Of a DNA stretch of 64,000 nucleotides, positions 1 through 29,739 are shown piece by piece. Numbering within the stretch: position 1 is the stretch's first letter; every line of letters begins with the position of its first letter. The stretch is from Bigelowiella natans CCMP2755 (Eukaryota > Protista > Cercozoa): NCBI GenBank assembly GCA_000320545.1, contig ADNK01000550.1:1-64000 (forward strand), given 5' to 3'. The notes beneath the pieces are model-generated. The model saw nothing but the letters and a program-made list of their open reading frames with translations, had not been told where the DNA came from and did no database searches. The translations under genes were made by a program, and so were the position numbers.

Positions 1-861
1 AAACACAAATCTCAACTCGTACCTCCTGCAAAATCAGCCATTCTCCACGCCGCTTGAACAGCCTCTTCGTCTCGCTCTCCTGGAGGCTGTGGGCTATGTA
101 CGAATGATCTACAGCGCTTAATGACTTACTTTAGGTAGTAATCGATATAAATGAACTTCCCTTATACGAGTGATAACTATGAATGTAATTCTCGATATCG
201 ATGTTTTCGAATTTTGATGAGTTGAGCTTCCGCTGAGGTTGACTAATAGTTTCGCTCTATTGACGGCTCTGATGGCGATGTGAGTAAGCCACGCTAGTTC
301 TGGACTCATGACATGTAGTGATCGAGGGGTGCACACTTTCTGCATAGTCATGATGAGGACAAAAGAAAAAATGGGTAGGGGACAGGGTGGACGTAGACAG
401 GTTGGGATGGGGTTTGAGGCAACAAATCAATTTTTTAGCTCGTAATTTCCTACGATCTTTTCTCGATGTTGTTAGAGTTGTTGTAGGATGTTGTTGGTTG
501 TTTTGGATTTCGCGAATTCGTCCGTGAATGTTCGAGATGATTCCAGAATTTCGGACAGCACACCAATCATGGAAATCACCTGCATTTTGTAGCAAAATTC
601 TAGAAAAACACCAGAAAGTTGCAACTGAATTTTCTCTCACTAAAACAGGACTGCGAAACTCCCCCCCTTACCCATTTGAAGCGGCAGACCCTTCCCTTCT
701 CTTCTTTTGAGCACAGCCATCAGTGAGCAAGGTCAGTGAGTCTGGGCCAAGTGCTGATTCAGAAACCACCCCCCCCCCAAACGTGAACTTGAGGACTTGT
801 TGCTCAATCCTGTGTGTAGGTCTATTGGCTTAGATTTTAGTGTGCCCAACTCCTCTTCGCA

Positions 862-3800
862 ATGACAAGCAGGGAGCTTCTCCATGCGAGTAAGAATGGC
901 CACACCGACACCGCAAAACTATTGATTGAGAACCGAGCTAATCTTGAGGCAAAGGACAAGAATGGTTTGACCGCTCTCAGTTGGGCGAGTCATCAGGGCC
1001 ACACCGACACCGCAAAACTATTGATTGAGAAAAGAGCTAATCTTGAGGCAGAAAACAAGAATGGTGTGACCCCTCTCAGTTGTGCGAGTAGTCAGGGCCA
1101 CACCGACACCGCAAAACTATTGATTGAGAAAGGAGCTAATCTTGAGGCAAAATACAACGATGGTAGGACCGCTCTCAGTTGGGCGAGTAGTAAGGGCCAC
1201 ACCGACACCGCAAAACTATTGATTGAGAAAGGAGCTAATCTTGAGGCAAAAGACAACGATGGCAGGACCGCTCTCTGTTGGGCGAGTAGTCAGGGCCACA
1301 CCGACACCGCAAAACTGTTGATTGAGAAAGGAGCTAATCTTGAGGCAGAAAACAAGAATGGTGTGACCCCTCTCAGTTGTGCGAGTAGTCAGGGCCACAC
1401 CGACACCGCAAAACTATTGATTGAGAAAGGAGCTAATCTTGAGGTAGAAAACAAGACTGGCAGTGCCCCTCTCATTTGTGCGAGTTGTCTGGGCCACACC
1501 GACACCGCAAAACTATTGATTGAGAAAGGAGCTAATCTTGAGGCAAAACACAACGATGGTAGGACCGCTCTCAGTTGGGCGAGTAGTGAGGGCCACACCG
1601 ACACCGCAAAACTATTGATTGAGAAAGGAGCTAATCTTGAGGCAAAATGCAACGATGGCAGGACCGCTCTCTATTGGGCGAGTAGTCGGGGCCACACCGA
1701 CACCGCAAAACTATTGATTGAGAAAGGAGCTAATCTTGAGGCAGAAAAAAAGAATGGTATGACCCCTCTTATTTGTGCGAGTAGTCGGGGCCACACCGAC
1801 ACCGCAAAACTATTGATTGAGAAAGGAGCTAATCTCAAGGCAAAGGACAAGAATGGTTTGACCGCTCTCAGTTACGCGAGTGGTCTGGGCCACACCGACA
1901 CCGCAAAACTATTGATTGAGAAAGGAGCTAATCTTGAGGCAAAAGACAACGATGGCAGGACCGCTCTCAGTTGTGCGAGTAGTCAGGGCCACACCGACAC
2001 CGCAAAACTGTTGATTGAGAAAGGAGCTAATCTTGAGGCAGAAAAAAAGAATGGTATAACCCCTCTTCTTTCTGCATGTAGTTATGGCAAGACCGACACC
2101 GCAAAACTATTGATTGAGAAAGGAGCTAATCTTGAGGCAGAAAAAAAGAATGGTATAACCCCTCTTCTTTCTGCATGTAGTTATGGCCACACCGACACCG
2201 CAAAACTATTGATTGAGAAACGAGCTAATCTTGAGGCAAAGGACAAGAATGGCAGTACCGCTCTCATTTTGGCGAGTTATCAGGGCCACACCGACACCGC
2301 AAAACTATTGATTGAGAAAGGAGTTAATCTTGAGGCAAAATGCAACGATGGCAGTGCCGCTCTCATTTTGGCGAGTTATCAGGGCCACACCGACACCGCA
2401 AAACTATTGATTGAGATACGAGCTAATCTTGAGGCAAAGGACAAGTATGGTAGGACCGCTCTCAGTTGTGCGAGTAGTCAGGGCCACACCGACACCGCAA
2501 AACTGTTGATTGAGAAAGGAGCTAATCTTGAGGCAAAAGACGATGATGGCAACACCCCTCTCAGTTGGGCGAGTAGTAAGGGCCACACCGACACCTCAAA
2601 ACTATTGATTGAGAAAGGAGCTAATCTTGAGGCAAAATGCAACGATGGCAGTGCCGCTCTCATTTTGGCGAGTTATCAGGGCCACACCGACACCGGTGGT
2701 ATGACCCCCATCAGTTTTGCAATTTGTCATGGCCACACCGAAACCGCAAAACTATTGATTGAGAAAGGAGCTAATCTTGAGGCAGAAAGCAACGGTGGTA
2801 TGACCCCCATCAGTTTTGCAATTTATCATGGCCACACCGACACCGCAAAACTGTTGGTTGAGAAAGGAGCTAATGCTAATGTTGGAGCAAAATGCGGAGA
2901 TGGCAGTACCCCTCTCCATCGGGCGAGTCATCATGGTGAGAACGACATCGCAACATTGTTGATTGAGAAAAAAGCAAATCTTGAGGCAAAAGACGATGAT
3001 GGCAATACCCCTCTCAGTTGTGCGAGTGCTAATGGCAAGACCGATACCGCAATGCTGTTGATTGAAAAAGGAGCAAACACCAAAAATTTGAGTTTGCCGT
3101 TGGCTTGTTCTGGAGGTCTCGTCGACATTGTGCACCTCTTGATCAAGAAAAAGGCTGACCCTTTCGTTGAATTAGAAGGGAAAACGGCACTGGTGTTGGC
3201 TAAAGAAAAGCGAAAACATGATGTAGTTGCGATTTTGGAAGAGTATATAAAAAATTGGGTGATGCTTCACAAGGCTTGCGAAAAAGGCAACATTGACATA
3301 GTGAAGTTGTTAATTAAAAATGAGGCTGACCTTGAGGTAAGAGATGAAGATGGCAACACTCCTCTCTCTTGTGCGACCAAAAAAGGCCACATCGACATCG
3401 CAAAATTACTGATTGAGAACAAAGCTAACCTTGATGCGAAAGACAAGAATGATAATACCCCTCTCATTTTGGTGAGCAAGAATGGCATGACCGACATCGC
3501 AAAATTACTGATTGAGAACAAAGCTAACCTTGATGCGAAAGACAAGAATGACAATACCCCTCTCATTTTGGTGAGTAAGAATGGCACAACCGACATCGCA
3601 AAATTACTGATTGAGAACAAAGCTAACCTTGATGCGAAAGACAAGAATGATGACACCCCTCTCATTTTGGTGAGTAAGAATGGCACAACCGACATCGCAA
3701 AATTACTGATTGAGAAAAAAGCTAATCTTGAGGCAAAAGACAAGAATGATGATGCCCCTCTCATTTTGGTGAGTAAGAATGGCATGACCGATATCGCAAA

Positions 3801-4260
3801 AACACTGATTGAGAACAAAGCTGATCTTGACACAAAAGACAAGGATGGCAATGCTCCTCTCATGTTGGCGAATAAGAATGGCAAGATCGACATCGCACAA
3901 CTGTTGATTGAGAATGGGGCAGATACTAAAAAGGCTTCTGTTTGGGTAGCAATGGAGGGTCGCAACGACCTGGCAAAACTCTTCATCGAGGCAGAAGCAA
4001 AGTGGCTCGCAAAATCAGAGACAAAGGCAAAACGACATGAGGAAACGAATGAAAGTGAAGAGACGAAAGAAGAAGACGAGAAAGAAGAATTGAAACCAGA
4101 AGCGAACGAATTAAAGATTGATGATGAAGATGAAGCAGACAGTTTGAGAGAAGAATTAAAACAACAAAAAGAATTAAACAAAAAAACAGTCCATCTCTTA
4201 CTCTCATTGCTTGTGATCATAATTTCAGTGTGTCTGCACCAAATATTGGGAAAGATGTGA
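862..4260 (+). CDS. Ankyrin-repeat protein (~30 repeats) with acidic/coiled-coil stalk and C-terminal transmembrane helix
   Basis: 33-aa repeats G.T(P/A)L..AS..GHTDTAKLLIEKGANLEA; second repeat type NKANLDAKDKNDNTPLILVSKNG at ~3400-3900; hydrophobic tail VHLLLSLLVIIISVCL. Confidence 0.97.
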   Translation: MTSRELLHASKNGHTDTAKLLIENRANLEAKDKNGLTALSWASHQGHTDTAKLLIEKRANLEAENKNGVTPLSCASSQGHTDTAKLLIEKGANLEAKYNDGRTALSWASSKGHTDTAKLLIEKGANLEAKDNDGRTALCWASSQGHTDTAKLLIEKGANLEAENKNGVTPLSCASSQGHTDTAKLLIEKGANLEVENKTGSAPLICASCLGHTDTAKLLIEKGANLEAKHNDGRTALSWASSEGHTDTAKLLIEKGANLEAKCNDGRTALYWASSRGHTDTAKLLIEKGANLEAEKKNGMTPLICASSRGHTDTAKLLIEKGANLKAKDKNGLTALSYASGLGHTDTAKLLIEKGANLEAKDNDGRTALSCASSQGHTDTAKLLIEKGANLEAEKKNGITPLLSACSYGKTDTAKLLIEKGANLEAEKKNGITPLLSACSYGHTDTAKLLIEKRANLEAKDKNGSTALILASYQGHTDTAKLLIEKGVNLEAKCNDGSAALILASYQGHTDTAKLLIEIRANLEAKDKYGRTALSCASSQGHTDTAKLLIEKGANLEAKDDDGNTPLSWASSKGHTDTSKLLIEKGANLEAKCNDGSAALILASYQGHTDTGGMTPISFAICHGHTETAKLLIEKGANLEAESNGGMTPISFAIYHGHTDTAKLLVEKGANANVGAKCGDGSTPLHRASHHGENDIATLLIEKKANLEAKDDDGNTPLSCASANGKTDTAMLLIEKGANTKNLSLPLACSGGLVDIVHLLIKKKADPFVELEGKTALVLAKEKRKHDVVAILEEYIKNWVMLHKACEKGNIDIVKLLIKNEADLEVRDEDGNTPLSCATKKGHIDIAKLLIENKANLDAKDKNDNTPLILVSKNGMTDIAKLLIENKANLDAKDKNDNTPLILVSKNGTTDIAKLLIENKANLDAKDKNDDTPLILVSKNGTTDIAKLLIEKKANLEAKDKNDDAPLILVSKNGMTDIAKTLIENKADLDTKDKDGNAPLMLANKNGKIDIAQLLIENGADTKKASVWVAMEGRNDLAKLFIEAEAKWLAKSETKAKRHEETNESEETKEEDEKEELKPEANELKIDDEDEADSLREELKQQKELNKKTVHLLLSLLVIIISVCLHQILGKM
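895..2880 (+). repeat. 99-bp tandem repeat (ankyrin coding units), about 21 copies
   Basis: Near-invariant core ggccacaccgacaccgcaaaactattgattgagaaaggagctaatcttgaggca recurs every 99 bp; one unit is truncated at ~2693. Confidence 0.97.
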
Positions 4261-4713
4261 TTTTTTTCCTCTTTTTGCAACATCTAAAACATCACAAATG
4301 AGCAATTGCAAGTTTGCATCCTGCGATTAAAAATGAAAGTGAGCAACATGCCATCGATGCAAAAAATGCATCCTGCGCTACACAATTCTGCATTCAATGT
4401 CAACACGGATCGGGGTCATCATCTGTGCGTCGGATGCATGTCCTCTCAGCAACATTGCGCATTTACGCTGTTAACAGTCATCAGGGTTGCACTCAACGTC
4501 CTATGAACATTTGCGCGTGCATTGATTGTGTTTTTGTCATTTTCGCAACGTGAAAGTCGATGCACGTGTCACAGACAACGTGCACACACAGGGACTCTAC
4601 AAGTCCACATACTCGGTTGTTAAACCAAGCATTTTTTTTTAGTCGACAATGAGGACACATTTCATCAAATTTTTGTTCTGAAATTCACACAAACAGCAAA
4701 CAACAAACACGCA

Positions 4714-5349
4714 ATGGATGATGAAAAACAGTCCAATCAATTTGTTGACACGATCAAATGCAGCGGTTCTACCCCAACAAACTACAATGTAGACGAATCT
4801 CATCACCAGCGCACACACTGCCACAGGCGACCACGCTGTACAAAACACAATCTTTACCTCAAAAAGCCCAAAAAATACAAGAGGTCACGCAAGTCAATAC
4901 TTGGAGGCGCAGAAAGAACGTATCATCGACACTGCATGAACGACAAAGAAGCCGAAGCTTACAAACTTCAAATGCAAAGAGAAGGCATAGAAGACATCAA
5001 AAAGGCACCACTTTACAAGCAACTTCCCAAACCTTACGTGGTGAAAAACCCACGACATCAGAAGATGCCAATCGAAAAAAACAAACAAAAGAAAAACTCA
5101 GGTGGACCGAACGTTGACGAAAACTTGAACATTTTTTTGAAATTTTCGCTTGGAGAAAATGATGGCAATGCCCCTCCTGTTTTGGCGAGCAATGATAAGA
5201 ATGGCAAGACCAACATCGCAAAACTGTTGATCAAGAATGCGGCAGACACCAAAAAGGATTCCATTTGGGTAGCAAAGGAGGGTCGCAACGACCTGGCAAA
5301 ACTCTTTGACAAGACGGAGGCAAAGTGGCTCGTAAAATCAGAGAATTGA
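4714..5349 (+). CDS. Chimeric hypothetical protein; C-terminus is a diverged copy of the ankyrin gene's 3' part
   Basis: 5161-5343 aligns to 3844-4020 (DGNAP...WVA.EGRNDLAKLF...EAKWL.KSE). Confidence 0.6.
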   Translation: MDDEKQSNQFVDTIKCSGSTPTNYNVDESHHQRTHCHRRPRCTKHNLYLKKPKKYKRSRKSILGGAERTYHRHCMNDKEAEAYKLQMQREGIEDIKKAPLYKQLPKPYVVKNPRHQKMPIEKNKQKKNSGGPNVDENLNIFLKFSLGENDGNAPPVLASNDKNGKTNIAKLLIKNAADTKKDSIWVAKEGRNDLAKLFDKTEAKWLVKSEN

Positions 5350-5720
5350 ATGTAAAATGACACAAGGAAACGAATGTGAAGGGATCAAAGGGGATGCATG
5401 CATGTTTCATTTTCGCCGCTGCAACTTTTGTGCCCTTGCATGGCCTCATGAAGCTACACAGCGTGTACGTGCAAGGACACACAAGTCCCTGTGCGTGCAT
5501 GCTGTCTGTGACATGTCAACACTGAGAAGAAATTAGTTGATTCATTGCTAGCTTGCAACTTGGGTGAAGATCACAGGGAAACAAATGAAAACAAGGACAA
5601 ACGAGGTCGCTCATTGGTCCGTCGTTAGTTGCGTTTACAAGGTCTCGAGATTTGGTTGGAGAACACAAGAAGCATTTGTGACCAACTCCAAAACACAGTT
5701 CACCAAAACTGTCTATTCGC

Positions 5721-7282
5721 TCATTCGCAAGATGATGACGATGACGATGATTCGTTAAATTTCACATTGAAATGATCATTTTTGACAATCTGATGGTTGT
5801 CGTCGTCGTAGAACATGTAATGCACTTCTCTCAAAGATGTGTCAGAATTCTGTGAGGGCTTTAGTATTTCTTTCAGAAGCGCGTGCAATGCCTCCAATCT
5901 CTCTTTGAATGAGATTTTTGAATGCTTTGACTTTCGCGAAATGTGGTGTGGTCTTCGTTTGTCGGGATTGAAACGAATGAAAATTTTGCGTTTGAAGCCG
6001 TCGAAGTCATTGTCCATGATGTCGGCCATCCTTTTCGCTTCGCATTTGCATGACCCATTTTAGCTTCGTGTTGATGTTCATCGCATTCAATGGCGACAAT
6101 TACGTCGATCCCAGTCAGTGTGACATCAGGCCTCTTCTTTGAACAACCGCCGAGAGATGCCAGTTGTCGATCGTGGGAAGTGATCGGGTAATTCTTTGAT
6201 TTGAGAAATTTCAGCATCTTGATCTCTTTCCTCTCTAGTTTGCCCGTCACCTTGTTGTGACACTGTCTGCAAATCATGTTTTCGTTCTTGTGCATGTCTT
6301 TGTGTGGAATCAGTCGATATCTTTTCTTAGAACAGTAGTTGCACTCTTTGTCACCCATGTCGTGAAAGCATTCCATGTGCCTGATCAAATTGCCCTTTAG
6401 TGAAGCCGAGTAGCCACAGCCTTGAAATTTGCATTTGTGCGGCTTCAGCTTTTCGTGAACGGCTCGCACGTGCATGACCAAATTGCTCTTTAGTGAAGTC
6501 GAGAAGCCACAGTCTTGAAATTTGCATTTGTGCGGCTTTAGCTTTTCGTGAACGGCTCGCACGTGTGTGACCAAATTGCTCTTTAGTGAAGTCGAGAAGC
6601 CACAGTCTTGAAATTTGCATTTGTGCGGCTTTAGCTTTTCGTGAACGGCTCGCACGTGTGTGACCAAATTGCTCTTTAGTGAAGTCGAGTAGTCACAGCC
6701 TTGAAATTTGCATTTGTGCGGCTTTAGCTTTTCGTGAACGGCTCGCACATGCCTGACCAAAACGCCCTTTAGTGAAGTCGAGTAGTCACAGCCTTGAAAT
6801 TTGCATTTGTGCGGCTTTAGCTTTTCGTGAACGGCTCGCACGTGCATGACCAAATCGCCCTTGCGTGAAGCCGAGTAGTCACAGCCTTGAAATTTGCATT
6901 TGTGCGGCTTCAGCTTTTCGTGAACGGCTCGCACGTGCATGACCAAATTGCTCTTTAGTGAAGTCGAGAAGCCACAGTCTTGAAATTTGCATTTGTGCGG
7001 CTTTAGCTTTTCGTGAACGGCTCGCACGTGTGTGACCAAATCGCCCTTGCGTGAAGTCGAGTAGTCACAGCCTTGAAATTTGCATTTGTGCGGCTTTAGC
7101 TTTTCGTGAACGGCTCGCACGTGTGTGACCAAATTGCTCTTTAGTGAAGTCGAGAAGCCACAGCCTTGAAATTTGCATTTGTGCGGCTTTAGCTTTTGCT
7201 TGTGTTTTTTGTTTTTTTGCATTGCCTCAAGTTCATCAAGCTTGCGTTTAGGAGCATTTGTCTCATTGACCACACCGTTCAT
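5721..7282 (-). CDS. C2H2 zinc-finger array (9 fingers) fused to giant-virus PD-(D/E)XK endonuclease; 1-nt frameshift at ~6058-6061 (pseudogene or sequencing error)
   Basis: Fingers Cx4C..Hx4H with EKLKPH linker; nuclease motifs KKRPDV...VAIECDEHQH in ORF 5873..7282 continue as CEAKRM...FIRFNPD...HYMFYD in ORF 5721..6029; one extra A in the A4 run joins them. Confidence 0.88.
6361..7195 (-). repeat. 90-bp tandem repeat (zinc-finger units), 9 copies
   Basis: gaaatttgcatttgtgcggctt recurs every 90 bp. Confidence 0.97.
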
Positions 7283-7363
7283 TGTTTTGGAATTTGAAAC
7301 ACGATCAAGATGTTTGAGTTTGGAAATTGCTTGATGTGCTCAAAATTGTGTGTGTGTGTGTGT

Positions 7364-7521
7364 CGGCTGGACAATCAAAACAACAAACAGGCGTTCGGCT
7401 TGACAATCAAAACAACAAACAGGCGTTCGGCTTGACGATCAAAACAACACTGTGCGTTCGGCTTGGCAATCAAAACAACAAACAGGCGTTCGGCTTGACA
7501 TTCAAAACAACACCATGCGTT
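7364..7521. repeat. 5 x 31-32-bp tandem repeat upstream of the ZF-nuclease gene
   Basis: Unit cggcttgacaatcaaaacaacaaacaggcgtt at 7364, 7396, 7428, 7459, 7491; preceded by a (tg)n tract. Confidence 0.95.
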
Positions 7522-8141
7522 TAGTAAAAAGTGCCCAAAATGCTAACAATGGTAGATTTTCATCATTTGACAATTCGATTGGAAATGAAACCAAATTTCA
7601 CAAAATAATGTTGCCTGATTTTAGACCTCCATGAAGCATCCAATGTTTTGATTACGAGTGCGGGCGGTTTTGTTTTGCCGATTTTGAACAATTGTCTGAC
7701 AGAGGACTTGTCGTCTTTGCAATTTGGTGGCGAATTCCAATGCACTGTTTTTTCATCCTTGTCGCCATTCTGCAATTCAGGTCAATTTTGGTCATTTCGA
7801 AAGGACCGGTCAGTCAATTTGGAAATCAAAACACATCATGACATGAAAGGTCGTTTCTTGTGTTTTTGGCCTGAAATGTCATGTCGTAAATCTGCATCTG
7901 TCATGACCACACAAAACAATGAAATTCACTTCTCAAATCAGAAGACAACGTTGCTCGTTTTTTTCAAATTGTGCATGTTTCCTTGTCGCATTTTGAATTT
8001 TGGGTCATTTCTTTGTCGTTTCAAAAGGGTCAGATGAATTTGAAATTGCTTCGACTTTGAGTCCGTTCTCATGACTTTGTCGATCATGTCTCAGAGAATC
8101 TCAGGAAATCTCCATGGCATCATGTCATTTAAATGTATCGT

Positions 8142-8637
8142 TTTGACCGTCAATGCAGTGCAAAATGAAATCTGAGAATTGCGTGGATTTCCTCGAGATC
8201 TCCCAACATCGTTGTCTAAAGGTATAGGTAGCTTTTGGGTAAAGGTAGCTTTTAGGTAAAGGTACATGGTGTGGGTAAAAAGTGTAGGTAAGGTGAGTGA
8301 GCATGTTTAGCGTGTCGTAGGACAAAAACCTACTTTTACTAAAAACATGTACCTTTACCTAAAAGCTACCTTTACCCAAAAGCTACCTATACCTTTAGGT
8401 TTTGACCTTCATGAAAATAAATGTTTTTCAAATTCTCAGATTTCATTTTGCACTGCATTAACGGTCAAAGCAGTGATTTACGAACATGGCATTGCGTGGA
8501 TTTCCTCGAGATCTCCCAACATCGTTGTGTGGATTCAGAAAAAATGACCTCGATTTCAAAAAATATTTCACATTTCACTCGTGTAAAATTTGACTAGGTT
8601 TTTGTCCTACGACACGCTAAACATGCTCACTCACCTT
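8142..8637. repeat. Nested inverted/direct repeat element A-B-C-D-C'-A'-B-D'
   Basis: A 8142-8180 / A' 8431-8469 (1 mismatch); B 8178-8215 = 8491-8528 direct; C 8216-8268 / C' 8346-8398 perfect 53-bp IR; D 8290-8332 / D' 8595-8637 perfect 43-bp IR. Confidence 0.95.
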
Positions 8638-8834
8638 CAAATTGTGAAAAATGTTTTGTAGGGACTCCAATCGCATAGATGTTCATCTTAGCAAGGCCAA
8701 CGCAGAAGGAACACTATTGTCTTAAATCATGGCTGTCATGCCACGTTGCACTGCAGCAGAGACACTCGATGATGTCGAAAAGGGTTAGATCATCGAGTCG
8801 CTGCATGAACATTGCCTCTCTGTGATGACTATTC

Positions 8835-9356
8835 GTGACACCATGCCATAGCTGGTACCCTGTAGCAGATTATTTTGTCGCTTTTATCAAAAAGAACTGC
8901 TGTGTGTTGTCGCTTGTAAAAAATAGTGGGGATGTCAGGACACATTGCACAAAGGCTCTTTGGCATGCTGCCTACCCCCCCCCCCTGAACATGAACGCAA
9001 GGCTCAGAGAAATGTTGTCGTGCGTTCATGACTTGAAGCGAGGAATAAAGATTTTGGAATCTGTGGTGCTAAAGTCTATGAAACGCCACAGACAGGAAGG
9101 AAAAAGAAATCCTGGAAGGCCTCGTAAGCGCAGAACAATGTTAGAGGCAGAGCAGACTGTTAACGTGCCAGTGGTTAAAAGAAAAAGGGGCAGGCCGCGT
9201 AAAAATCAACAGAGAAGTGCCAATGAAAGCACACCAGTGCTTACTCGTAAACACAGACCGCGAAAGGATGTCAAGGAGGAGATAGCCATACCGACTAGAA
9301 GGAGCAAAAGACGCAAGCGTTTTCCAGACACTTGCGGGGCATATTTACGAAAGTGA
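8835..9356 (+). CDS. AT-hook-containing basic protein (5' end possibly degraded)
   Basis: PGRPRK and KRGRPRK AT-hook motifs, plus degenerate HRPRK; GTG start. Confidence 0.6.
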   Translation: MTPCHSWYPVADYFVAFIKKNCCVLSLVKNSGDVRTHCTKALWHAAYPPPLNMNARLREMLSCVHDLKRGIKILESVVLKSMKRHRQEGKRNPGRPRKRRTMLEAEQTVNVPVVKRKRGRPRKNQQRSANESTPVLTRKHRPRKDVKEEIAIPTRRSKRRKRFPDTCGAYLRK

Positions 9357-9379
9357 TGTTTCCTGGCGTCAATCGTCAA

Positions 9380-10557
9380 CGCAGCTTTCCTCTACTTGCC
9401 GTAAGAAATTGTCCGGTACACCCCCTCCTGTGTCTTCTGGCTTTAATTGTCATCGCAGCTTCCTCTACTTGCCGTGAGAAATCATCCCGTGTACCCTCCT
9501 GCGTCTTCTGGCTTTGATCATCATCGCAGCTTCCTCTACTTGCCGTAAGAAATTATCCGGTGTGCCCCTCCTGCGTCTTCTGGCTTTAATTGTTATCGCA
9601 GCTTCCTCTACTTGCCGTAAGAAATTATCCGGTGTGCCCCTCCTGCGTCTTCTGGCTTTAATTGTTATCGCAGCTTCCTCTACTTGCCGTAAGAAATCAT
9701 CCGGTGTGCCCGGGGCTGCGTCTTCTGGCTTTAATTGTGATCGCAGCTTCCTCTACTTGCCGTAAGAAATTATCCGGTGTACCCCTCCTGCGTCTTCTGG
9801 CTTTAATTGTTATCGCAGCTTCCTCTACTTGCCGTAAGAAATTATCCGGTGTACCCCTCCTGCGTCTTCTGGCTTTAATTGTTATCGCAGCTTCCTGTAC
9901 TTGCCGTAAGAAATTATCCGGTGCACCCCTCCTGCGTCTTCTGGCTTTAATTGTCATCGCAGCTTCCTCTACTTGCCGTAAGAAATTATCCGGTGTACCC
10001 CTCCTGCGTCTTCTGGCTTTAATTGTTATCGCAGCTTCCTCTACTTGCCGTAAGAAATTATCCGGTGTACCCCTCCTGCGTCTTCTGGCTTTAATTGTTA
10101 TCGCAGCTTCCTCTACTTGCCGTAAGAAATTATCCGGTGTACCCCTCCTGCGTCTTCTGGCTTTAATTGTTATCGCAGCTTCCTGTACTTGCCGTAAGAA
10201 ATTATCCGGTGCACCCCTCCTGCGTCTTCTGGCTTTAATTGTTATCACAGCTTCCTCTACTTGCCGTAAGAAATTATCCGGTGTACCCCTCCTGCGTCTT
10301 CTGGCTTTAATTGTTATCGCAGCTTCCTCTACTTGCCGTAAGAAATTATCCGGTGTACCCCTCCTGCGTCTTCTGGCTTTAATTGTCATCGCAGCTTCCT
10401 CTACTTGCCGTAAGAAATTATCCGGTGTACCCCTCCTGCGTCTTCTGGCTTTAATTGTTATCGCAGCTTCCTGTACTTGCCGTAAGAAATTATCCGGTGT
10501 ACCCCTCCTGCGTCTTCTGGCTTTAATTGTTATCGCAGCTTCCTCTACTTGCCGTAA
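9380..10557. repeat. 72-bp tandem array, ~16 copies
   Basis: Unit cgcagcttcctctacttgccgtaagaaattatccggtgtacccctcctgcgtcttctggctttaattgttat; left units are more degenerate. Confidence 0.98.
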
Positions 10558-10684
10558 AAGTCCCTCGAGAAGATCATGCAGATGTTGAAAGCCAATGCAA
10601 CGCCCTCTTCTTCTTCGAATGCTTGAATGTTAACAACAACAAAATTTCATGTGTAACATCGCTTGTGATCTTCTTTTGATGCAT

Positions 10685-11038
10685 TTAAGGCTTGAATGCT
10701 GTGCAATTATTCGCGATTAGCTCGTTCACTTTTTTTTGGTCATAGCCTAACACTGCTTTGATTGAGTCTGCGCTCTGGCGCGTGTTCTTAAGTATTGCTT
10801 TGAATGCCGTGTTAAATTTTTCTTCAGTGACGCCTGTCACTCTATTGCGCAATTGTTGCATACATTCGCTTTCCATGACCGTCTCAATTGGCTCGTCCGA
10901 AAAGAGTCCAACGCGCACAATGCAGGGAAGGTCTCCTTTTCTAATGACTATGTTCACTTTTTTCAATTCGTCGTGTATCAACATGCACATGGGTTTTATG
11001 ATCGTTGAGGAGTCAACAAGACTTGTCAAAAAGCTCAT
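10685..11038 (-). CDS. Hypothetical protein
   Basis: 117-aa ATG ORF with globular composition. Confidence 0.6.
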   Translation of the reverse strand: MSFLTSLVDSSTIIKPMCMLIHDELKKVNIVIRKGDLPCIVRVGLFSDEPIETVMESECMQQLRNRVTGVTEEKFNTAFKAILKNTRQSADSIKAVLGYDQKKVNELIANNCTAFKP

Positions 11039-11280
11039 GATGCAGTCTCACTTGTTGGTTTTCAACGCTTCGCGCGATTGTCGTGAGTTGTTTGTGTTGC
11101 TTCTTCCACGTGCTGTCCATCACAGACCGTGATGTCTTTTTTCGGTGGTTGTGTGTGAGACCTCCCTCATGACATGCACATTTGAGCATTAGGATATATT
11201 TTTTTTTTGTGTGGGTCCCAGACACAATGCTCTGGGTTTTTAGAAATTGAGCTGAAGTGTGCACACATCAGTGACTAACC

Positions 11281-11649
11281 ATGTTCAACAGAACCGCGAA
11301 ACCAGACGGAAAAGTGTCCGAGAGAAAGAAAGAAAAAAAAACTTACAGAGTCACTCACTACAATGGCAAGCCGCTCGAAAAAACCAAGGAATACAAGGGC
11401 GGTCGCGATTTACCTGAATACAAAAATGACACTCCAGGAAACGCCGCTAAAAAATGCGGCCGAATCCTCAAAGAAATGAAAAAGAAAACAGGCACGTTCA
11501 CACTTCAGATGATATCTTCAGGGTACAGAGTGCCACAATACAAAGAATACAAGTACAAAGTCGAACGCATCAAAAAGAAAGTACCAGATGAATTTGGAGA
11601 CTTTGAAATCAAGGCCACACCAATCAAACCAAGGAAGCAAAAGAAGTGA
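11281..11649 (+). CDS. MC1-like non-histone chromosomal protein (giant-virus type)
   Basis: Lys-rich 122 aa with GGR...TPGNAAKK...FTLQ...YKY..ER.K..P pattern typical of viral MC1 homologues. Confidence 0.65.
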   Translation: MFNRTAKPDGKVSERKKEKKTYRVTHYNGKPLEKTKEYKGGRDLPEYKNDTPGNAAKKCGRILKEMKKKTGTFTLQMISSGYRVPQYKEYKYKVERIKKKVPDEFGDFEIKATPIKPRKQKK

Positions 11650-14117
11650 AATGCAGCCGACTTTTTTTTGCGATGAAAACAACAACTGCAAGAGGCGAGA
11701 CGGTGTGCAAACAAGCAACCATGAGAATTTCACGCAGAAGACAAAAACGAGTCACGAAACCAGGCGTGCAAGACCATGGCAGCGACGAGAAAGACAACGA
11801 AGATGAGGAAAAAGACTTAGATCCTGGTGAACTCCTGACCGAAATCACCGGCGCTCCACTGCGTTACGACTTTGACATGTCTCCAGAGGACAATGAATGG
11901 GTACGACTGCATGACGTGCTGTTCGTCCGACTGCATTTGCTCGACATGATCACGCACATCGTCCAAGGCGAGATGTACAAGTCCGAACTTGGTGCGACAT
12001 CGACAAGTCGGTCGGGTGAGGACGTTTTTGTCATGTGCTGCCTTCAGAACAATCGTTTCATCGAAATCGCCGAGGCGATTCTGCACGCTTCCATCCGCGA
12101 CGCGAGAGGCGGGGTTGACAGAAAAGTCGCCGCGTGGCAGAAACCCCTGGAACGAAAGCATTCCAGACCCGACAACCTCTGGAAAGTGGCGAGCATGCGC
12201 TCAGCAAACCCCGAGCGCAAGACACGAGTGAGACGCATGATCGAGGGTTTTCTCGAAGACGAAAAAGATGATTCCAACTTGAGCGCAACCTCAAAACGGC
12301 TGCTGCTGTCAAGAACCGCGGATGCCGACTCGGACGCTCAGAAACGCATCAACCGCTTTCTTCTGGGCCAGGCCGTGATTGTGCCCAATTGCGACGTTGA
12401 CATGTGCTGGAAGCTGGTTGTCGGGGCCAACAAAACGCGCGATGGCATGCGAGATGGCAACGAAGATGTCAAAGAGGGATGGCAGCAGGCACGCAAATTT
12501 CAGAATTGGGTGGTCAACAAACAACCCGAAACCAAGAACAACGGTTACAGTTTCAGGGCAGCGTTCTTGCTTCTGATCAACGAGATGCAGGACTGGGGGG
12601 TTGCTCCAGGGCAAACGGCGCAGCGCAGCTCGGCAATCCGCTGGAACACGAACCTCGTCGAAGACATGGATGCGATGCGCACTCGAATCATCGGCATGTA
12701 CGGTTCCTTCACACGTCGCTCTTTCCTCATGTTCCTGCACCAGGAGTCCAGTGACATCAAACACACCAGGCATGGCTTTCTGTACTGCCAGCTGCCATCC
12801 ACGCAGCAGATTCGGCAGATCTTCGAGGCGCATGTGCTCAAACGCCTTCCTTCCGGCAGTCGGAACGCCTTCTGGCTCAATCTCTTGCAGCACACACACC
12901 GCGCGAACGCTTCTGAGGCCGACATTCGAACGCCTGACCCTCGCTTCTTTGTGAGTCGGACTGCCCACCGGGATTTCTTTCTGCAGACACGCATTCCGGT
13001 CGAAGTGGACGACGAGTCGGATCTCTTGCTTCTCAACGCGATGAACGAGTTGTACGAGGTGGTCGGGCGTTTGCAGCGTCCGGTGTCGCGAAACGCACAC
13101 AACTACAACACACTGGCGCAGTTTGTCGCGTGTGTTTGGACCTCTGTGATGTCGAATGTGGGTGCCGTCGATCACATGTCCCTGCTCGCGAAATCGTTTG
13201 CGTTGCAGCACATCAAACGCGTCATGGTCGCCCCGGTTGCCGCCGGGGATGTAGACTCCGGTGAGGATTCCGGGGAGGAGAAGGCCGACGACGCGGTGAC
13301 CCTTTCAAGCATGGAGGTGACTCAACGCCGGAATTACAAATTCTTTTCACAACCAAGTGCTGCCACACAACAACTCAGGTCCTTGGACGAACGGCACACT
13401 GACCAGATGCGTCTTCGTTTGCTCAACAGGATTCGAAGCAGCACCCTGCAACTTCGAGTGCAGGATTTTCCTCTCTATCTGCTTCCCTCTTTGGACACCA
13501 TGGAACGCGAGCAGCTGCTAGTCGAGTCCCGAAAATTGAACTTTGAAAGATGCACCCGCTCCCCAGATTGCCGCTGCATGAGGCCCATCCTGGACCACGA
13601 AGCTGCAGCAGCCGATTCCGAGGAGGAGAGGGTCGTCGACATCGTTTTGCTTCTGCCAAAACACGCATGCAAGAAACAAAACAACGGGGACTACGTGGCG
13701 ATTGACCTGCACCGCAATGAAACACCAAGACAGCCGCTTCTTTCGCAAATGGTTGATGTTGCGAATGCGCCAAGAACCAGAGGCGTCAGCGTCAAGGAGG
13801 CTCTGCCCAGACGATTTCAGGACCCTGCCGCGTGCGTTTTCGATTTGCTGTTTACTGACGTCGACGGCAAGGTCAGGGTGCGCGATCGGATGAAAAACAA
13901 CGATCGAGCAAGAATGCGCGTGCATTCCGCGCTGAACTTCACAGTGTTTCCTAGAAGTACTCGCCAGCCCAGTGACTCGGTGCACATCATTGCATTGGAA
14001 TCCTTGGAATCTCGGCTGCTCTCAGGTCAGCGCGGCGCTGCTGTGTTGCACAACATGATGGACGGGCTTGCACATGTCATTCCAGACAAACTTGACACTG
14101 TCTTGTTTTTGCGTTGA
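11646..14117 (+). CDS. Large hypothetical protein (start may be 11673 or 11721)
   Basis: 823-aa uninterrupted ORF; no motif recognised. Confidence 0.85.
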   Translation: MKCSRLFFAMKTTTARGETVCKQATMRISRRRQKRVTKPGVQDHGSDEKDNEDEEKDLDPGELLTEITGAPLRYDFDMSPEDNEWVRLHDVLFVRLHLLDMITHIVQGEMYKSELGATSTSRSGEDVFVMCCLQNNRFIEIAEAILHASIRDARGGVDRKVAAWQKPLERKHSRPDNLWKVASMRSANPERKTRVRRMIEGFLEDEKDDSNLSATSKRLLLSRTADADSDAQKRINRFLLGQAVIVPNCDVDMCWKLVVGANKTRDGMRDGNEDVKEGWQQARKFQNWVVNKQPETKNNGYSFRAAFLLLINEMQDWGVAPGQTAQRSSAIRWNTNLVEDMDAMRTRIIGMYGSFTRRSFLMFLHQESSDIKHTRHGFLYCQLPSTQQIRQIFEAHVLKRLPSGSRNAFWLNLLQHTHRANASEADIRTPDPRFFVSRTAHRDFFLQTRIPVEVDDESDLLLLNAMNELYEVVGRLQRPVSRNAHNYNTLAQFVACVWTSVMSNVGAVDHMSLLAKSFALQHIKRVMVAPVAAGDVDSGEDSGEEKADDAVTLSSMEVTQRRNYKFFSQPSAATQQLRSLDERHTDQMRLRLLNRIRSSTLQLRVQDFPLYLLPSLDTMEREQLLVESRKLNFERCTRSPDCRCMRPILDHEAAAADSEEERVVDIVLLLPKHACKKQNNGDYVAIDLHRNETPRQPLLSQMVDVANAPRTRGVSVKEALPRRFQDPAACVFDLLFTDVDGKVRVRDRMKNNDRARMRVHSALNFTVFPRSTRQPSDSVHIIALESLESRLLSGQRGAAVLHNMMDGLAHVIPDKLDTVLFLR

Positions 14118-14223
14118 TGTGCGGCCTGATGAAAAATAGTGAGTTTTTGTTTGATATTTTTCTGTTTTGTCCTTTGTGCATTTCATTGTGCATTGTTTTG
14201 TTTCGTGACCCTTTGCAAAACCA

Positions 14224-15888
14224 ATGAGTGTGCTGACTCAAGAATTTCGAGACATCTTGCCATTTGTGTTGGCTTGGGGCCAGCAATGTCACCTGCAATG
14301 CTGCCCGAACTCTGTTGCGGCGAACAAGACTCTGCTCAATGTCGCGAAAGTTGTCAACAAACCGACATCTAAGCCGAAAAAGGTGAAGGTTTCCCCGCTT
14401 TCCGTCCCAAGCACGTGGACTCCGGGAGAGGGTGTGAATGTGACCTATGCCAGTGATCTCAGTGACCCATCAAAAACGAAGACCGTCACCATTGTTGTGA
14501 ACAAAAACACAGTGAAAAGTGCGTCGTATGACTTTGAAGTCTCATTTGAGGATGACGACGCCAAAGTGAGTGGTGGAAAGGACCTGTTGTCGTTAGACAA
14601 AACCATCCAAGATCTGAAAAAACAAATTGAAGGGTTGAAAGATGAATTGGATTCGTCAAATTCTTCTTCTTCTCCTTCCATTCCTGGTGCTGGGGGCGTT
14701 CCTCCTCCTCCAGGCGCAGGCGGCTTTCCTCCCATTCCTGGTGCTGGGGGCATTCCCCTTCCTCCTCTTCCAAGCGCGGGCAGCTTTCCTCCCATTCCTG
14801 GTGCTGGGGGCGTTCCTCCTCCTCCAGGCGCAGGCGGCTTTCCTCCCATTCCTGGTGCTGGGGGCGTTCCCCCTCCTCCAGGCATGGGCGGCATTCCCCC
14901 TCCTCCAGGCATGGCTTCTCCTTCAGGCTTGGCTCCTCCTCCAGTTGTCCCTTCTGGGCCCACCGCAGCTGAATTGAAAAAAATGGAAGAGGAAAAGAAA
15001 AAATTGATCGAAAGGCAAAAAGCAGAAATCGATCAAAAATTCAAGAAATTTTTCGATGGAGTGGGTGGTAAAATTAGTGTGAAACAATTGATTGCATTCC
15101 ATGAAGTGTTGCAGAAAGATGTCAAAGAATCGTGCAAAAAACAAAAAATGAAAAATGTAACATTGCCAAATAAGCGCTTCACCATGTACTCAGCCATCAA
15201 AGACCCGGAAAAATACAACATTGTGTCCGGGGAAAATTTTGTCAAAGCATTCAAAAAGTCAATGTGGATTCAGGCGTTTGAGCAGATTTTGACGAGGAAT
15301 GAAACGACCGCACACAATTGCAATGACAGCGCTGTCACAACTGCCACCAAGCCTTATTTCAAATGTCGACTCGAAAAAATGATTTTAGCAGCGAAGAAAA
15401 AGAAAAAGTCGAAAAAAACTGCAGACACATCCGATTCCAAAGACAAGGATGACCAGAAAACCATCAAAATAGAAGATTTTATGAATGAAGACAAAAAAGA
15501 CCATCTGCCTTCTAAAATAGGGGTAGCATCCGCAGAAAAATTTGTCACCAAAAACTTAGACTACAACGACAACGTAGTGATGAGCAAGGTGTTGGAAAAA
15601 CTTGAAAATGTCTACGTCAACGACAAAGAAAACTTAACACAGATGACATTTGTTTTCAACAACAACGAAGTGATTCAATGGAACAATTTGAAAAAGGCTC
15701 TTCTTGATTCTCAAAGAGGGAAGTTTAAGACCGTCACAGAGGCATTTGAAGCTCTGGCTGAGGACCATGACGGCAACAAGAAAATCAAAAAAATCATGAA
15801 CTACATGTTGATGGTCGAATGGCAAGAACATCAAACAAAAATAAACAGAATGTTCTCAAAAGTCAATAGGGAAATTGCACAACGCTAA
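14224..15888 (+). CDS. Proline-rich (formin FH1-like) coiled-coil protein
   Basis: [18 protein letters not shown] / [11 protein letters not shown] repeats (14680-14913) flanked by coiled coils; no FH2 recognised. Confidence 0.8.
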
Positions 15889-15963
15889 TTTGCCTTTTTA
15901 TTTTTTTGAGTCACGTAGATTGCACGATCGTTTGATTGCTCGTGTTTTGAACACGAGCTCTTC

Positions 15964-16965
15964 ATGGACCTGTCCTCATTCCTCTCTGATGTGGATGTAC
16001 TGGAGAAATCTGTGCTGAAACATTTCACTAACTTCAACAAAATTTACGATTTGATCAAACAGAATGAAAGCATGTTCCTGGACATCTATGAGATTCTGAT
16101 CGTGCATTTCTTGTTGTTGCGGGCGTGGAATTGTTTCAAGGTCAACAACCAAGATTCGAAGAACCAAATGACACAACTCATGGGGCCTCTGCCTTTAGAT
16201 CTTGTAAATCTGCGGCAGGAATTCGCAGGTACGAAATCCACGAAATGGTCGCTCAAAACATCTTTGCTCATGAACAATGAAGCCTCCAAAAAGGCCATTT
16301 CTCTCTGCAAAACCTTGACAAAATTTAACAAAACTTTCAATTTGTTGAACGAGGAGACAAAAGAGAACCAAATACAGCTTCAAATGAAACTGCAAAATTA
16401 CAACAAGAACAAAAAGTCCGTGCAAGATGACAACGAAAAAAACAACAACAAGCTCAAGAAACTTCAAACCATGATCGATGATGAAAAAAAGAAATCAATG
16501 AAGTACAAAGTCATGAAAGCGGTTGAAAATAACTTGACGGAATTGCAAACCACGTACAAAAAGGCTTTGAAAGGCAAGGAAAAGATCGAAGATCTTCTGG
16601 CTGGCAAAAGCGAAACAGCATTGCCACAGTCCCTCAAACACCTCTACGAACTTTCTAAAATGTTCACATACTCTCCTGCGCTGCAATCAAAAAAAAAAGT
16701 AGCAGTTGTGACGTTCAGAGACACTTTGCAAACCATTGTCAAAAAAATTGACAAAAACGTTAATTTACCCCCATACACATATAAAAATCTTGTAGACGAC
16801 TTTGAAACATTGCAGAAAAACGATGCCCCTAAAAACTACACCAAAGCCATCGAGCTCCAATTAGATCTGCTGATTAACATTGGAAAGCTTGTGTACACGT
16901 TTCAAACATCTTGCGGCGGGGAAGAAATTGAGGAACTGATCAAAAAATTAGATTCTGCAACATGA
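15964..16965 (+). CDS. Coiled-coil hypothetical protein
   Basis: 333-aa K/N/E-rich ORF. Confidence 0.85.
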   Translation: MDLSSFLSDVDVLEKSVLKHFTNFNKIYDLIKQNESMFLDIYEILIVHFLLLRAWNCFKVNNQDSKNQMTQLMGPLPLDLVNLRQEFAGTKSTKWSLKTSLLMNNEASKKAISLCKTLTKFNKTFNLLNEETKENQIQLQMKLQNYNKNKKSVQDDNEKNNNKLKKLQTMIDDEKKKSMKYKVMKAVENNLTELQTTYKKALKGKEKIEDLLAGKSETALPQSLKHLYELSKMFTYSPALQSKKKVAVVTFRDTLQTIVKKIDKNVNLPPYTYKNLVDDFETLQKNDAPKNYTKAIELQLDLLINIGKLVYTFQTSCGGEEIEELIKKLDSAT

Positions 16966-17108
16966 TCGAAGAGTGCATTTCTTTTGACAAAATAACAATT
17001 TGTGCATCTCTGAAAGCTGACAAATGCAGGGCGTCTAGCCTGGCACGTACGCAAACCTACTGAGACACACAGCATTAGATTGTAAATTGAAAACTTAACA
17101 TTGCAGAG

Positions 17109-17522
17109 ATGAGCGTGATCAACGGTATTGTCGGAAACCTAATCGAGAGGTTTGCATTCCCCAGTCTTACGGTGCTGAGACTCGGTGTCTTCCAACTGGT
17201 AGACTCCGTGATTGAAGCGATTGCTTACATATTTGTAGCAGGGAAATTCGGAAGCAAGATTGACCAAAATTTCAAGATGTACAGTGGGTTCTCCTGGATT
17301 TCCAATGACAGCGTACGGGAGATCCTCAACTTGGCGTCGCAGATCGCCCTGCTGTTCCTGCTGCTCATAGTGGCGCAGAACGTGATCGAACGCATCCCAA
17401 GCCCGTTCAGTGGCCAGATCGGAACCTCCATTGGATCGGTCCTGTTCGTGCATGCCATCGTCGCCAACAGCCCCAATCTCATGGAGCGCATCAAAGATCT
17501 CATGACCAAGATGTCTCCGTAG
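17109..17522 (+). CDS. Small membrane protein resembling a conserved giant-virus family
   Basis: Hydrophobic helix followed by NVIERIPSPFSG, recalling the RN.VE.IP.P..G motif of uncharacterised NCLDV membrane proteins (from memory). Confidence 0.65.
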   Translation: MSVINGIVGNLIERFAFPSLTVLRLGVFQLVDSVIEAIAYIFVAGKFGSKIDQNFKMYSGFSWISNDSVREILNLASQIALLFLLLIVAQNVIERIPSPFSGQIGTSIGSVLFVHAIVANSPNLMERIKDLMTKMSP

Positions 17523-17531
17523 TCCAAGTCG

Positions 17532-18809
17532 TCAATTCAACAACGGAACATCTGCAGACGAAATCATCCGAGGACGATTCAAAATACCTTCCATCGGAGT
17601 GTATGGAATGGTCAAGTTCCTGTCGAGCTTTTTGAGGTAATGATACGCCTTGCGCTTGTCTATGCCTCTGAACTCATTTCTCTTGTAGTCCTTAAAATCT
17701 GCGATTTCTCTGATTCCATACAAGTCAAGGTAGTCGCGACCATTGTTCTTATTTGTTTTCACTCCGATTTGGTCTCTGCTGTCCAAGTACATCATGACCC
17801 CACGCGGCATTGCGGGTTCCTTCACGCCATCGAACTTTTGCATTCCCCACACACAGCGCCGTGTTTTATCACCTGATTCAATTCCTTGGAAATCTTTGTA
17901 TTCGTAGCCAAGCTCCTCTTGACATTGATGAAAAGGATCGCCTACTTTTCTGCAATCTTTCAAGTACGCATCGTGGGATCGTGATCCTGGTTTCCCTGCT
18001 TTTCGTAGTTTCTTCATGCATCTCAGTATTTCGCGTCCGTTTCTGTCATTGTCGAGGTCGCCTGCCAACCTAAAAAATTTCGTAGAAATGCAGTTACAGT
18101 ATCCCTTCATTTTTCTGTTTGTGTTTTGCAGATGTCGCCATGTACCTATGTTGCTTCCTTCGTAGAAAGTCTTGTTCACATCCGGCTCGAACACAGTGCG
18201 GTCGTATCTGCCGTAATAGTCGTAAGGTTCGTCTGTATTGGTTGGGAAACCTGTCAGATTGCGGTCAAATGCATCATCAGATGCATCATCGAACACAATT
18301 TCATCATCAGGCCTTACAATTAAAGAATTGGGTGGTGGGGGCGTACTGGGTGTGTCTTTGACATCATCATCATCATCACTAAGAGTGAGATCAATGACAT
18401 TGGCTGACGACGACGACGACAACGACGGTTTCGATCGTTTTGACTGTACAGGCGACGACGACAACGACGGTCTCGATCGCTTTGACGAGGAGGACGATGA
18501 CTCGTCTATTTTGAAACGAACATCTTCGCTTCCTGGAAACGGCACGAAGCATATAGGGGTTTTGGCATCGTCGAGATACACATCCGCATTCGGCGCATTC
18601 AAGGAGTTCTCAGATAGCTTGAGACCGTGCAAACTGTTTTTGTTTTTGTGCGAGCAATGTTCAAAAAACATCATGCTGTTGTTAATTGTGTTTTTGTACC
18701 GACTGTCACGCTTCGCCCTTGCGAGGGCTCTTTTCGAGAATCTGTTGCCTTTTGCCATTTCGCGCACGGCATGGTCAAAACGGAGCAAACTGTGTTTATT
18801 GTCCTGCAT
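17532..18809 (-). CDS. Hypothetical protein with Ser-rich linker and SIM-like VIDL motif
   Basis: ORF 17532..18974, likely start MQDNKH at 18809; VIDLTLSDDDDD. Confidence 0.8.
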   Translation of the reverse strand: MQDNKHSLLRFDHAVREMAKGNRFSKRALARAKRDSRYKNTINNSMMFFEHCSHKNKNSLHGLKLSENSLNAPNADVYLDDAKTPICFVPFPGSEDVRFKIDESSSSSSKRSRPSLSSSPVQSKRSKPSLSSSSSANVIDLTLSDDDDDVKDTPSTPPPPNSLIVRPDDEIVFDDASDDAFDRNLTGFPTNTDEPYDYYGRYDRTVFEPDVNKTFYEGSNIGTWRHLQNTNRKMKGYCNCISTKFFRLAGDLDNDRNGREILRCMKKLRKAGKPGSRSHDAYLKDCRKVGDPFHQCQEELGYEYKDFQGIESGDKTRRCVWGMQKFDGVKEPAMPRGVMMYLDSRDQIGVKTNKNNGRDYLDLYGIREIADFKDYKRNEFRGIDKRKAYHYLKKLDRNLTIPYTPMEGILNRPRMISSADVPLLN

Positions 18810-19050
18810 TGGCTGAGTTGCTGCTTCTGCCTTTTTTTTTTGGTTTTGTTTTTCTTTTTGGGACCACTCACTGGATGACACAGAAAAGCATCTGTGATTG
18901 CGCAACCCGTAGCAACACACAAAAAAAAAGTCACACCCGCATGCATGTGAAATCATGTTACACATTGAATTCATTCATCATTTGTCATTCCATTTTTGTC
19001 ATGCATTCTTCATTTGTCATTCATCATTCATTCTGCATCAATTTTGTTGT

Positions 19051-21066: not shown

Positions 21067-21262
21067 TATGTTTTTTGTGGCGTTTTGTACTTCGGTACTA
21101 TTGCTTTTGTGTGACCAAAAAAAAATACCAAAAACCTTATGAATTAGAAAAAAATATTAGGTCATGTTTGGTTGTAATATTTGTATTTTTTTTCCTAACA
21201 TTATTTTTTTCTCCGGGTGTTCGAGGGTGATTGTGTGTGTTGAATAACGCAAACACGTCACA

Positions 21263-22432: not shown

Positions 22433-22461
22433 TTTATTAGTTAAGTGTCGCATTCCTTCTT

Positions 22462-23022: not shown

Positions 23023-23090
23023 GGTTGCGTCTTTGTGTTTTGGCTCATGCATGCAACACAGACAAATTGACTGACAAAAAAAAAACATGC

Positions 23091-23960: not shown

Positions 23961-23976
23961 TGTTGCTGTTTGGTTC

Positions 23977-25809: not shown

Positions 25810-25886
25810 TGCTGTGTTGTTTTGGTTCGTCTCCGTGACCTCGGACTTTGGGCACATGTGAAAAAAAACATGAGACGTTTTGTATC

Positions 25887-26159: not shown

Positions 26160-26337
26160 CCAAAACGAACGGGTATGGTTTGCAGGCGGTTACCCAATGC
26201 GGTGCCGACATTGATTAGCATTACATTTTATTTTGTGGTAGTAAAGAAATGCTGCTATTCAGACCACCCTTTCCATTGAGCTTTTCGTTTTGCTTATGAT
26301 ACGCATATTTCTCTGCTGCAAAGGCCTAGGAAACAGC

Positions 26338-27381: not shown

Positions 27382-27401
27382 CGGCAATATTTTTACAATT
27401 T

Positions 27402-29713: not shown

Positions 29714-29739
29714 GTCCGTCCGATAGGGTAGTTTGAATT

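Follow-up and report, generated by a model that had tools for sequence, protein, structure and literature searches.

Dinucleotide-specific transition hypermutation of parasitic chromosomal DNA is known from fungi, where repeat-induced point mutation (RIP) needs duplicated sequence and makes TpA through C>T change at CpA. The closest described system concerns Bigelowiella natans itself. In mutation-accumulation lines of this organism, Mettrop et al. (bioRxiv 10.64898/2026.01.13.699255) found mutation rates ~1000 times those of the other genome in an inserted nucleocytoplasmic large DNA virus (NCLDV) and in a virophage region elsewhere. Of 211 changes there, 210 were A>G or T>C, all of them at TpA, and the hypermutation was active in 11 of 15 lines, that is, switched on or off between lines; a table of the preprint gives 231 de novo mutations. 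The insertion is single copy and transcriptionally silent, contains a capsid gene and has a rho TpA of 0.45 (TpA 3.3%); the authors proposed that an ADAT2-like protein deaminates adenine as an antiviral measure, without showing enzyme activity. Here we analysed a 64,000-nucleotide stretch of B. natans CCMP2755 (positions 1 to 64,000 of contig ADNK01000550.1, assembly GCA_000320545.1; hereafter the window), which, judged by its gene models, is part of this giant-virus insertion on scaffold 10. TpA hypermutation has thus already been reported for the same insertion and our finding is a rediscovery: organism, scaffold (from gene-model names), restriction to A>G/T>C at TpA and TpA depletion all agree, with no difference in kind. 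What we add are the flanking preferences, strand symmetry, the absence of stop creation, a footprint in the standing sequence, the non-preference for repeats and a diverged copy. The main text of the preprint describes no preference for flanking bases, no comparison of strands, no internal gradient and no diverged copy, nor does it say that stops cannot arise; its supplements may contain part of this. The words 'context', 'flank', 'stop', 'thymine' and 'polymerase' are absent from its text. Literature searches found no other paper on the TpA signature.

The placement within the scaffold-10 insertion follows from matches of window open reading frames (ORFs) to the Bigna1 fgenesh1_pg.10 gene models: members of two protein clusters bear the names of these models, and they match four ORFs at 99.6-100% identity, while one fused, gapped stretch is 96.8% identical with one gap. 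A preliminary description, made from the letters of this DNA alone, had supposed that the process acts on an endogenous virus, which these matches bear out. Three stretches carry the comparison:

179..64000, no strand: integrated giant-virus (NCLDV-like) part under TpA>TpG/CpA hypermutation; left edge uncertain, continuing past the right end of the window.
20001..40000, no strand: single-copy core stretch and complete test set, covered by a single contig in each of the runs X10 and X12.
10528..14707, no strand: hot zone, in which most TpA is already gone and the highest share of the remaining TpA has changed between runs.

The window was compared with DNA runs of the host, which may include the preprint's own data and are therefore not independent of it; 14 runs guessed to be DNA, which share a single organism code, contain 0.71-0.82 of the words of positions 7600-12000, and runs guessed to be RNA 0.10-0.48. 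Contigs of X10 and X12 cover 20,001-40,000, the spanning contig having flat depth, as for single-copy DNA, and four other runs were compared on 1-20,000. In the core stretch, all 28 differences are TA versus TG or CA. The window carries TA at 27 of these 28 places, and the rows in the A/T state lie within TpA in 27 of 27 cases, against 12.2% of adenines (p=2e-25); in the stretches compared, 10-12% of adenines lie within TpA, and the frequency of change at TpA bases is at least 140 times that at the remaining bases. There is no indel and no transversion between X10 and X12 on 20,001-40,000. A further run, X15, contributed no contig to this stretch, from which nothing follows. On 1-20,000, 40 of 82 rows are listed, four of which, in the repeat at 1-178, were set aside. 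Among the rows listed for 200-20,000, 34 of 36 are TA-type by window context, and the other two each form the second half of a double site (TG/CA at 14059-14060; CA, TA and TG at 15766-15767). Nine of the listed rows fall in the interval 862..10557 and all nine are TA-type. Over the full row totals, A>G or T>C accounts for 47 of 57 changes in X2, 50 of 61 in X7 and 48 of 59 in X14; these totals also include 2-3 transversions per run, at positions not among the rows listed. At 17586, an A>G is common to X1 and X14 and is not found in X2 or X7, unlike the other shared rows, and probably reflects recurrent mutation of a single ATAC site.

The density of changes is higher near the left end. In the interval 10,528-14,707, X2 and X14 each show 14 differences on 118 TpA bases, so that 12% of its TpA bases differ, versus 1.8% at 20-40 kb, and rho TpA is 0.06-0.20 at 12,001-15,000. 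These values hint at a mutation gradient within the element with a hot zone at its left end, and at no more than that because the two parts were compared with different runs.

The direction of change can be read from the changes private to one run. Seven in X10 and six in X12 all lead from TA, the state of the window and of the other run, to TG or CA; no rooting makes both private sets ancestral, which excludes the polarity of RIP, and the direction is TA>TG/CA. The claim of the preliminary description, a TpA-specific process of A>G polarity opposite to that of RIP, thus holds for 28 of 28 core differences and for all 13 private changes. Read backwards, as RIP, the data offer eight changes per run in 1-20,000 that are C>T or G>A relative to the window; however, C>T and G>A counts are identical (4 and 4) in X2, X7 and X14, as expected from the window's own branch, and the private changes of the sister runs all start from TA. 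CpG decay could have produced the double site 14059-14060, where TG and CA may both derive from CG, but CpG is not depleted in the window (observed/expected 1.03), in line with the earlier judgement that such decay is a poor explanation. The variants stand at full contig depth in several runs, and 19 single-nucleotide mutations were confirmed by Sanger sequencing in the preprint (bioRxiv 10.64898/2026.01.13.699255), which disposes of an artefact. We regard artefact, CpG decay and reversed RIP as refuted.

Flanking bases were examined at 62 sites, each double site being counted once. The changed TpA overlaps an ApT (ATA or TAT) at 44 of 62 sites, versus 32% in the background, a rule derived in the first set of sites (27/34) and upheld in the second (17/28, p=0.002). 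C precedes TA at 3 sites (15 expected) and G follows it at 6 (15 expected, p=0.003), while CTAG, GTAG and CTAC show no change on 414 sites; ATAC is as hot as its complement GTAT (9 and 8 of 107). Because the preference at -2 is for A in the first set but for both A and T in the second, 'ApT overlap' serves as a summary and not as a fixed motif. The ultraviolet TA photoproduct, which gives A>T and would act genome-wide, was rejected on these general grounds only. Direct conversion of N6-methyladenine at ApT was likewise rejected, as it would account for TAT sites alone and not for ATA; PMC12695648 does not mention Bigelowiella or Rhizaria.

Both strands are hit alike, with 30 changes on the plus and 32 on the minus strand, and the split between coding and template strand (25 versus 26) excludes a transcription-coupled attack on a single strand. 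ADAR hyper-editing of viral RNA shares with the present signature the A>G change and the 5' U/T preference, and forms one-strand clusters with 5' U or A, a 3' G being favoured by ADAR2 (PMC3113232). Unlike it, the changes here are heritable and in DNA, with the strands intermixed (30/32), a 5' T strictly and never A, and 3' G disfavoured.

An effect on both strands would also suit a Y-family polymerase (eta or iota type) recruited to the viral region, whose error-prone patch synthesis would place G opposite T after an A-T pair. The hot spot of polymerase eta is WA>WG, strongest at TA, with AA also mutated and some transversions; however, none of 28 changes is at AA, despite 3053 such bases, and neither a transversion nor an indel occurs in 20 kb, so that we consider such a polymerase very unlikely. 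Ordinary replication errors, left uncorrected if mismatch repair failed locally in silent chromatin, would likewise be regional and biased towards A:T>G:C, the bias seen in repair-deficient bacteria. Here, a single dinucleotide is affected and there is no indel at 35 homopolymers of at least 6 bases in two runs; by this absence of indels and of other contexts, a repair failure is largely refuted and in our estimate extremely improbable.

Among 60 classified changes, 49 are coding, 38 of them missense and 11 silent (71:29 expected, p=0.43), and no purifying selection acts on the changes. Enumeration of codons showed that no TA>TG/CA change is able to create a stop codon, whereas fungal RIP creates them. 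Since stops cannot arise, the damage consists of missense changes (Tyr>Cys/His, Ile>Met/Thr) and loss of stop codons, and AT-rich promoter signals would presumably be lost too.

The standing sequence bears the same imprint. Across the whole window rho TpA is 0.44 (TpA 3.07%), a value not reached from above by any of 46 control loci (rho TpA <=0.44 in 0/46; mean 0.84); these loci of at least 7 kb, out of 76 fetched, are distant relatives by two proteins, with viral status established for some only. TGA makes up 23 of 37 stops in the window versus 37 of 319 in the controls. The faster a tetramer mutates, the less of its TpA has survived (Spearman -0.92; null p=2e-4), and the tetramer rates correlate equally with the TpA surviving at 40-64 kb, from which no variant was taken (Spearman -0.91); the same correlation ranges from -0.47 to +0.86 in the controls. 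The standing sequence therefore carries the same context preference as the current changes. The Tyr content of the core is no lower than that of GC-matched controls (2.8% in both).

How might such changes arise? As we picture it, a host enzyme would deaminate the adenine of TpA in the chromosomal viral copy and the next round of replication would read the product as G; with both strands affected, TpA would become TpG or CpA, and the virus would slowly erode. A host adenine deaminase is our best single guess, held at about an even chance, because the changes are pure transitions with a strict 5' T, because two viral regions are acted on in trans and because the preprint names a candidate gene (Bn78255, with or without Bn77986). 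The parts of this reading differ in strength: that the enzyme is encoded by the host seems quite probable, that the process is a defence is somewhat favoured, and a lesion on A is preferred only slightly to one on T. The U33-A34 step is a natural target of ADAT2/TadA. The amphioxus BjADAT2/3 (PMC10354150) is a natural eukaryotic enzyme, of the HxE-PCxxC type, that can form inosine in DNA, and the preprint reports a homologue in the host.

Several points weigh against a host adenine deaminase. Both the enzyme and the modified base are hypothetical. The amphioxus enzyme, the one natural DNA-active ADAT2 that has been tested, prefers GAA and TCG and hairpin loops and edits C as well, none of which matches the signature here, and ADAR2 favours 3' G (PMC3113232), whereas G after TA is disfavoured here. 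The equal heat of ATAC and GTAT is easier to reconcile with an enzyme that recognises a duplex site than with one that reads a single strand. For a defence, the process is slow and works without nonsense mutations, the half-life of a TpA being ~63,000 generations as computed from the preprint rate. Finally, the window is only a third of the insertion, so a viral enzyme could lie elsewhere. Should a host adenine deaminase nevertheless be at work, a heritable A>G mutator acting on viral DNA would defend the genome with a polarity opposite to those of RIP and APOBEC, and the enzyme a natural DNA adenine editor; the DNA adenine activity of base editors had to be evolved in the laboratory. The flank preference and strand symmetry, together with the mismatch to ADAT2 and ADAR, provide a fingerprint for judging candidate enzymes.

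TpA is palindromic, so the sequence cannot separate attack on A (A>G) from attack on T (T>C), and a thymine-centred mark would be equally hidden. A host TET/JBP-like dioxygenase could oxidise the T of TpA to 5-hydroxymethyl- or 5-formyluracil, to be miscopied as C; the mark would silence foreign DNA, and mutation would be its by-product, as CpG decay is of 5-methylcytosine. 5-formyluracil does miscode. The equal effect on both strands and on complementary tetramers is in keeping with such a mark, regional limits and on/off lines fit one set in chromatin, and neither 'thymine' nor 'polymerase' is considered in the preprint text. There is also a precedent: dinoflagellate TET/JBP enzymes place 5-hydroxymethyluracil on selfish DNA, silencing transposons and preferentially replacing T in TA and TC (PMC11572971). 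The passages of that paper which we consulted describe no hypermutation, and the organisms are outside Rhizaria. None of the 62 changes here is in a TC context, the TpA base rate of 5.5e-6 per generation (~15,000 times background) is high for passive miscoding, and no literature tie of TET/JBP to Bigelowiella was found. We therefore hold a thymine mark to be unlikely.

Instead of the host, the integrated virus itself might supply the mutator, through a leaky DNA-modifying gene. Giant viruses of these algae are rich in DNA methyltransferases (PMC13196603), lines with virophage mutations always carry NCLDV mutations too (bioRxiv 10.64898/2026.01.13.699255), and a diverged second copy, described below, shares the eroded state. 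Yet no deaminase, methylase, dioxygenase or other DNA-modifying Pfam family was matched among the 101 window ORFs scanned. The region also seems nearly silent, as the preprint reports: of ~16 million RNA reads, equal to 6% of a single run, 65 matched 20 kb of the window (depth <0.4), with no expressed control gene alongside. In addition, TpA-poor clusters occur across the host genome (bioRxiv 10.64898/2026.01.13.699255). A viral mutator thus appears quite unlikely.

The process was first suspected from repeat families in the left part of the window:

862..4260, + strand: ankyrin-repeat gene with 99-bp units (Pfam Ank); TA-type alleles enriched yet in the minority.
5873..7282, - strand: C2H2 zinc-finger gene with 93-bp units (Pfam zf-C2H2).
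8142..8637, no strand: nested inverted repeats; arm mismatch 8151/8460 is CA/TA.
9380..10557, no strand: 72-bp tandem array of 16.3 copies, the clearest record of TA>TG/CA within the window.

Each distinct allele was counted once in the tallies, and array unit variants were read from the window sequence, as run contigs collapse at arrays. The preliminary description had TA-type variants dominating every repeat family. This is true of the 72-bp array, where 10 of 16 events are TA-type versus 1.3 expected (p=8e-8; 18 alleles, three merged into one event), and where ggTACAcc, ggTGTGcc, ggTGCAcc and ggTGTAcc are all present, as reported, with CG there in 0 of 15 units listed. For the ankyrin units the claim stands in part: 9 of 57 alleles in the first block are TA-type strictly and 18 of 57 when ambiguous neighbours are allowed (4.0 expected), and 10 of 27 in the second block (2.3 expected, p=4e-5). 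Ankyrin variation consists mainly of transversions (32 of 57 alleles in the first block) that fall within the unit's variable half. The codons quoted earlier (TAC at 1153, CAC at 1549, TGC at 1648) are there; the commonest codon at that position is GAC (7 of 18 units), so that TAC is itself one transversion away. The zinc-finger array fails to support the claim, having no TA enrichment (2 of 15 alleles versus 1.1 expected, p=0.31). In the inverted repeats, the single mismatch noted at 8151 is indeed TA/CA (TCA/TTA), and the pair 8216-8280/8334-8398 has four mismatches, at most one of them TA-type.

Nor do the data support repeats as the target, as the preliminary description had suggested they might be. 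Single-copy genes are changed, and the 72-bp array retains a rho TpA of 1.07 versus 0.44 for the window, being the most TpA-rich part and the sole TpA-normal stretch measured. Since single-copy DNA is affected, this is not RIP-like targeting of duplicated sequence, and the signature is far more strongly confirmed outside the repeats than within them.

Some further features of these repeats were recorded. Changes in the 72-bp array lie mostly in the left units, the right units being near-identical, which suggests that the latter were recently expanded or homogenised; the array is open in frames on both strands. The stretch 8142-8637 comprises three interleaved inverted pairs (39, 65 and 43 nt), a direct repeat of ~36 nt and 17-nt tandem units, and may represent an origin or a genome end of the virus. 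At 5160-5349, at the end of the next ORF, the tail of the ankyrin gene recurs as a short second copy (similar to 3850-4020). In 4 of 4 runs there is one extra T behind window position 6057, within the 3' portion of the zinc-finger ORF, whose frame it shifts there, and one base fewer at 9386; both discrepancies are probably assembly slips.

Relatives of several window proteins were found in Logan-derived contigs of 5.9 and 13.5 kb:

11275..11649: ORF with relative P0156.
11673..14117, + strand: 814-aa ORFan, rho TpA 0.14, Tyr 1.2%; relative P0153, 97% identical and equally Tyr-poor.
50709..52880, + strand: 723-aa ORFan used for long-term polarity; relative P0154, 93% identical.
62437..63999, - strand: 3' part of a superfamily 2 (SF2) helicase gene (P0001) with distant relatives on giant-virus contigs; relative P0002, 98% identical.

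This second copy was compared at the protein level only. The 2023 aligned residues include 78 differences, 63 of which no single TA-type change could produce; six of the remainder fit TA loss in the window, four in the relative and five in both. Tyr counts are 44 in the window proteins and 45 in the relatives, and the two look equally eroded. With most differences ordinary and Tyr counts nearly equal, erosion appears to be largely older than the split of the copies, each of which has probably lost a few more TpA since (p=0.036 and 0.015, transition bias uncorrected). The predominance of ordinary substitutions likewise indicates that the second copy is an insertion in another strain or a related virus. 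At the preprint rates, 63 ordinary changes would need ~20 million generations if accumulated as passive host DNA, a span that constant hypermutation makes irreconcilable with the half-life of a TpA. One way out is that the mutator is switched off most of the time in nature; the other is that the copies separated while they replicated as viruses of a lineage already bearing the footprint. The diverged copy thus raises the question of a latent virus versus a mostly silent mutator. A bolder combination, which we think improbable, would have a natural host enzyme edit palindromic TpA in double-stranded foreign DNA by reading the overlapping ApT, possibly acting on T, with the virus a latent lineage that is repeatedly edited and whose active relatives bear the footprint.

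The helicase itself, compared with 50 distant homologues, shows a weak shift in composition: its Met content exceeds that of 46 of them, its His content that of 42 and its Tyr content that of 13, with Cys unremarkable. An alignment search of viral contigs placed its relatives at three distant loci on three contigs, two of them giant virus metagenome-assembled genomes (GVMAG); a single-sequence scan of viral contigs gave no match.

In general, the interval 179..64000 has a high gene density and ORFans predominate. Clear Pfam families among the 101 ORFs scanned are ankyrin, C2H2 zinc-finger, F-box, endonuclease VII, DUF378 and SF2 helicase. The PHROGs search of the window returned endonuclease VII plus a single weak tape-measure match and nothing more, and neither scan recognised a capsid, polymerase B or packaging ATPase in the window ORFs. 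For an 811-aa ORF, an atlas search gave no usable match.

To the left, the viral DNA adjoins a further feature:

1..178, no strand: piece of a ~180-bp tandem repeat at high depth, with a joint 178>1.

Its depth is ~850-1200 versus 50-95 alongside (three runs), and one of its four variants is TA-type, so the signature is not apparent there. The repeat is probably host DNA and, at 10-20 times the local depth, may mark the edge of the insertion.

Two ORFs on the minus strand of the core deserve mention. The one at 22462-23127 has no Pfam match, and its C-terminus resembles what we take to be a SET-domain motif. The other, at 19051-21066, encodes a 671-aa alanine-rich, fibre-like protein with many relatives, 30-45% identical, in aquatic metagenomes.

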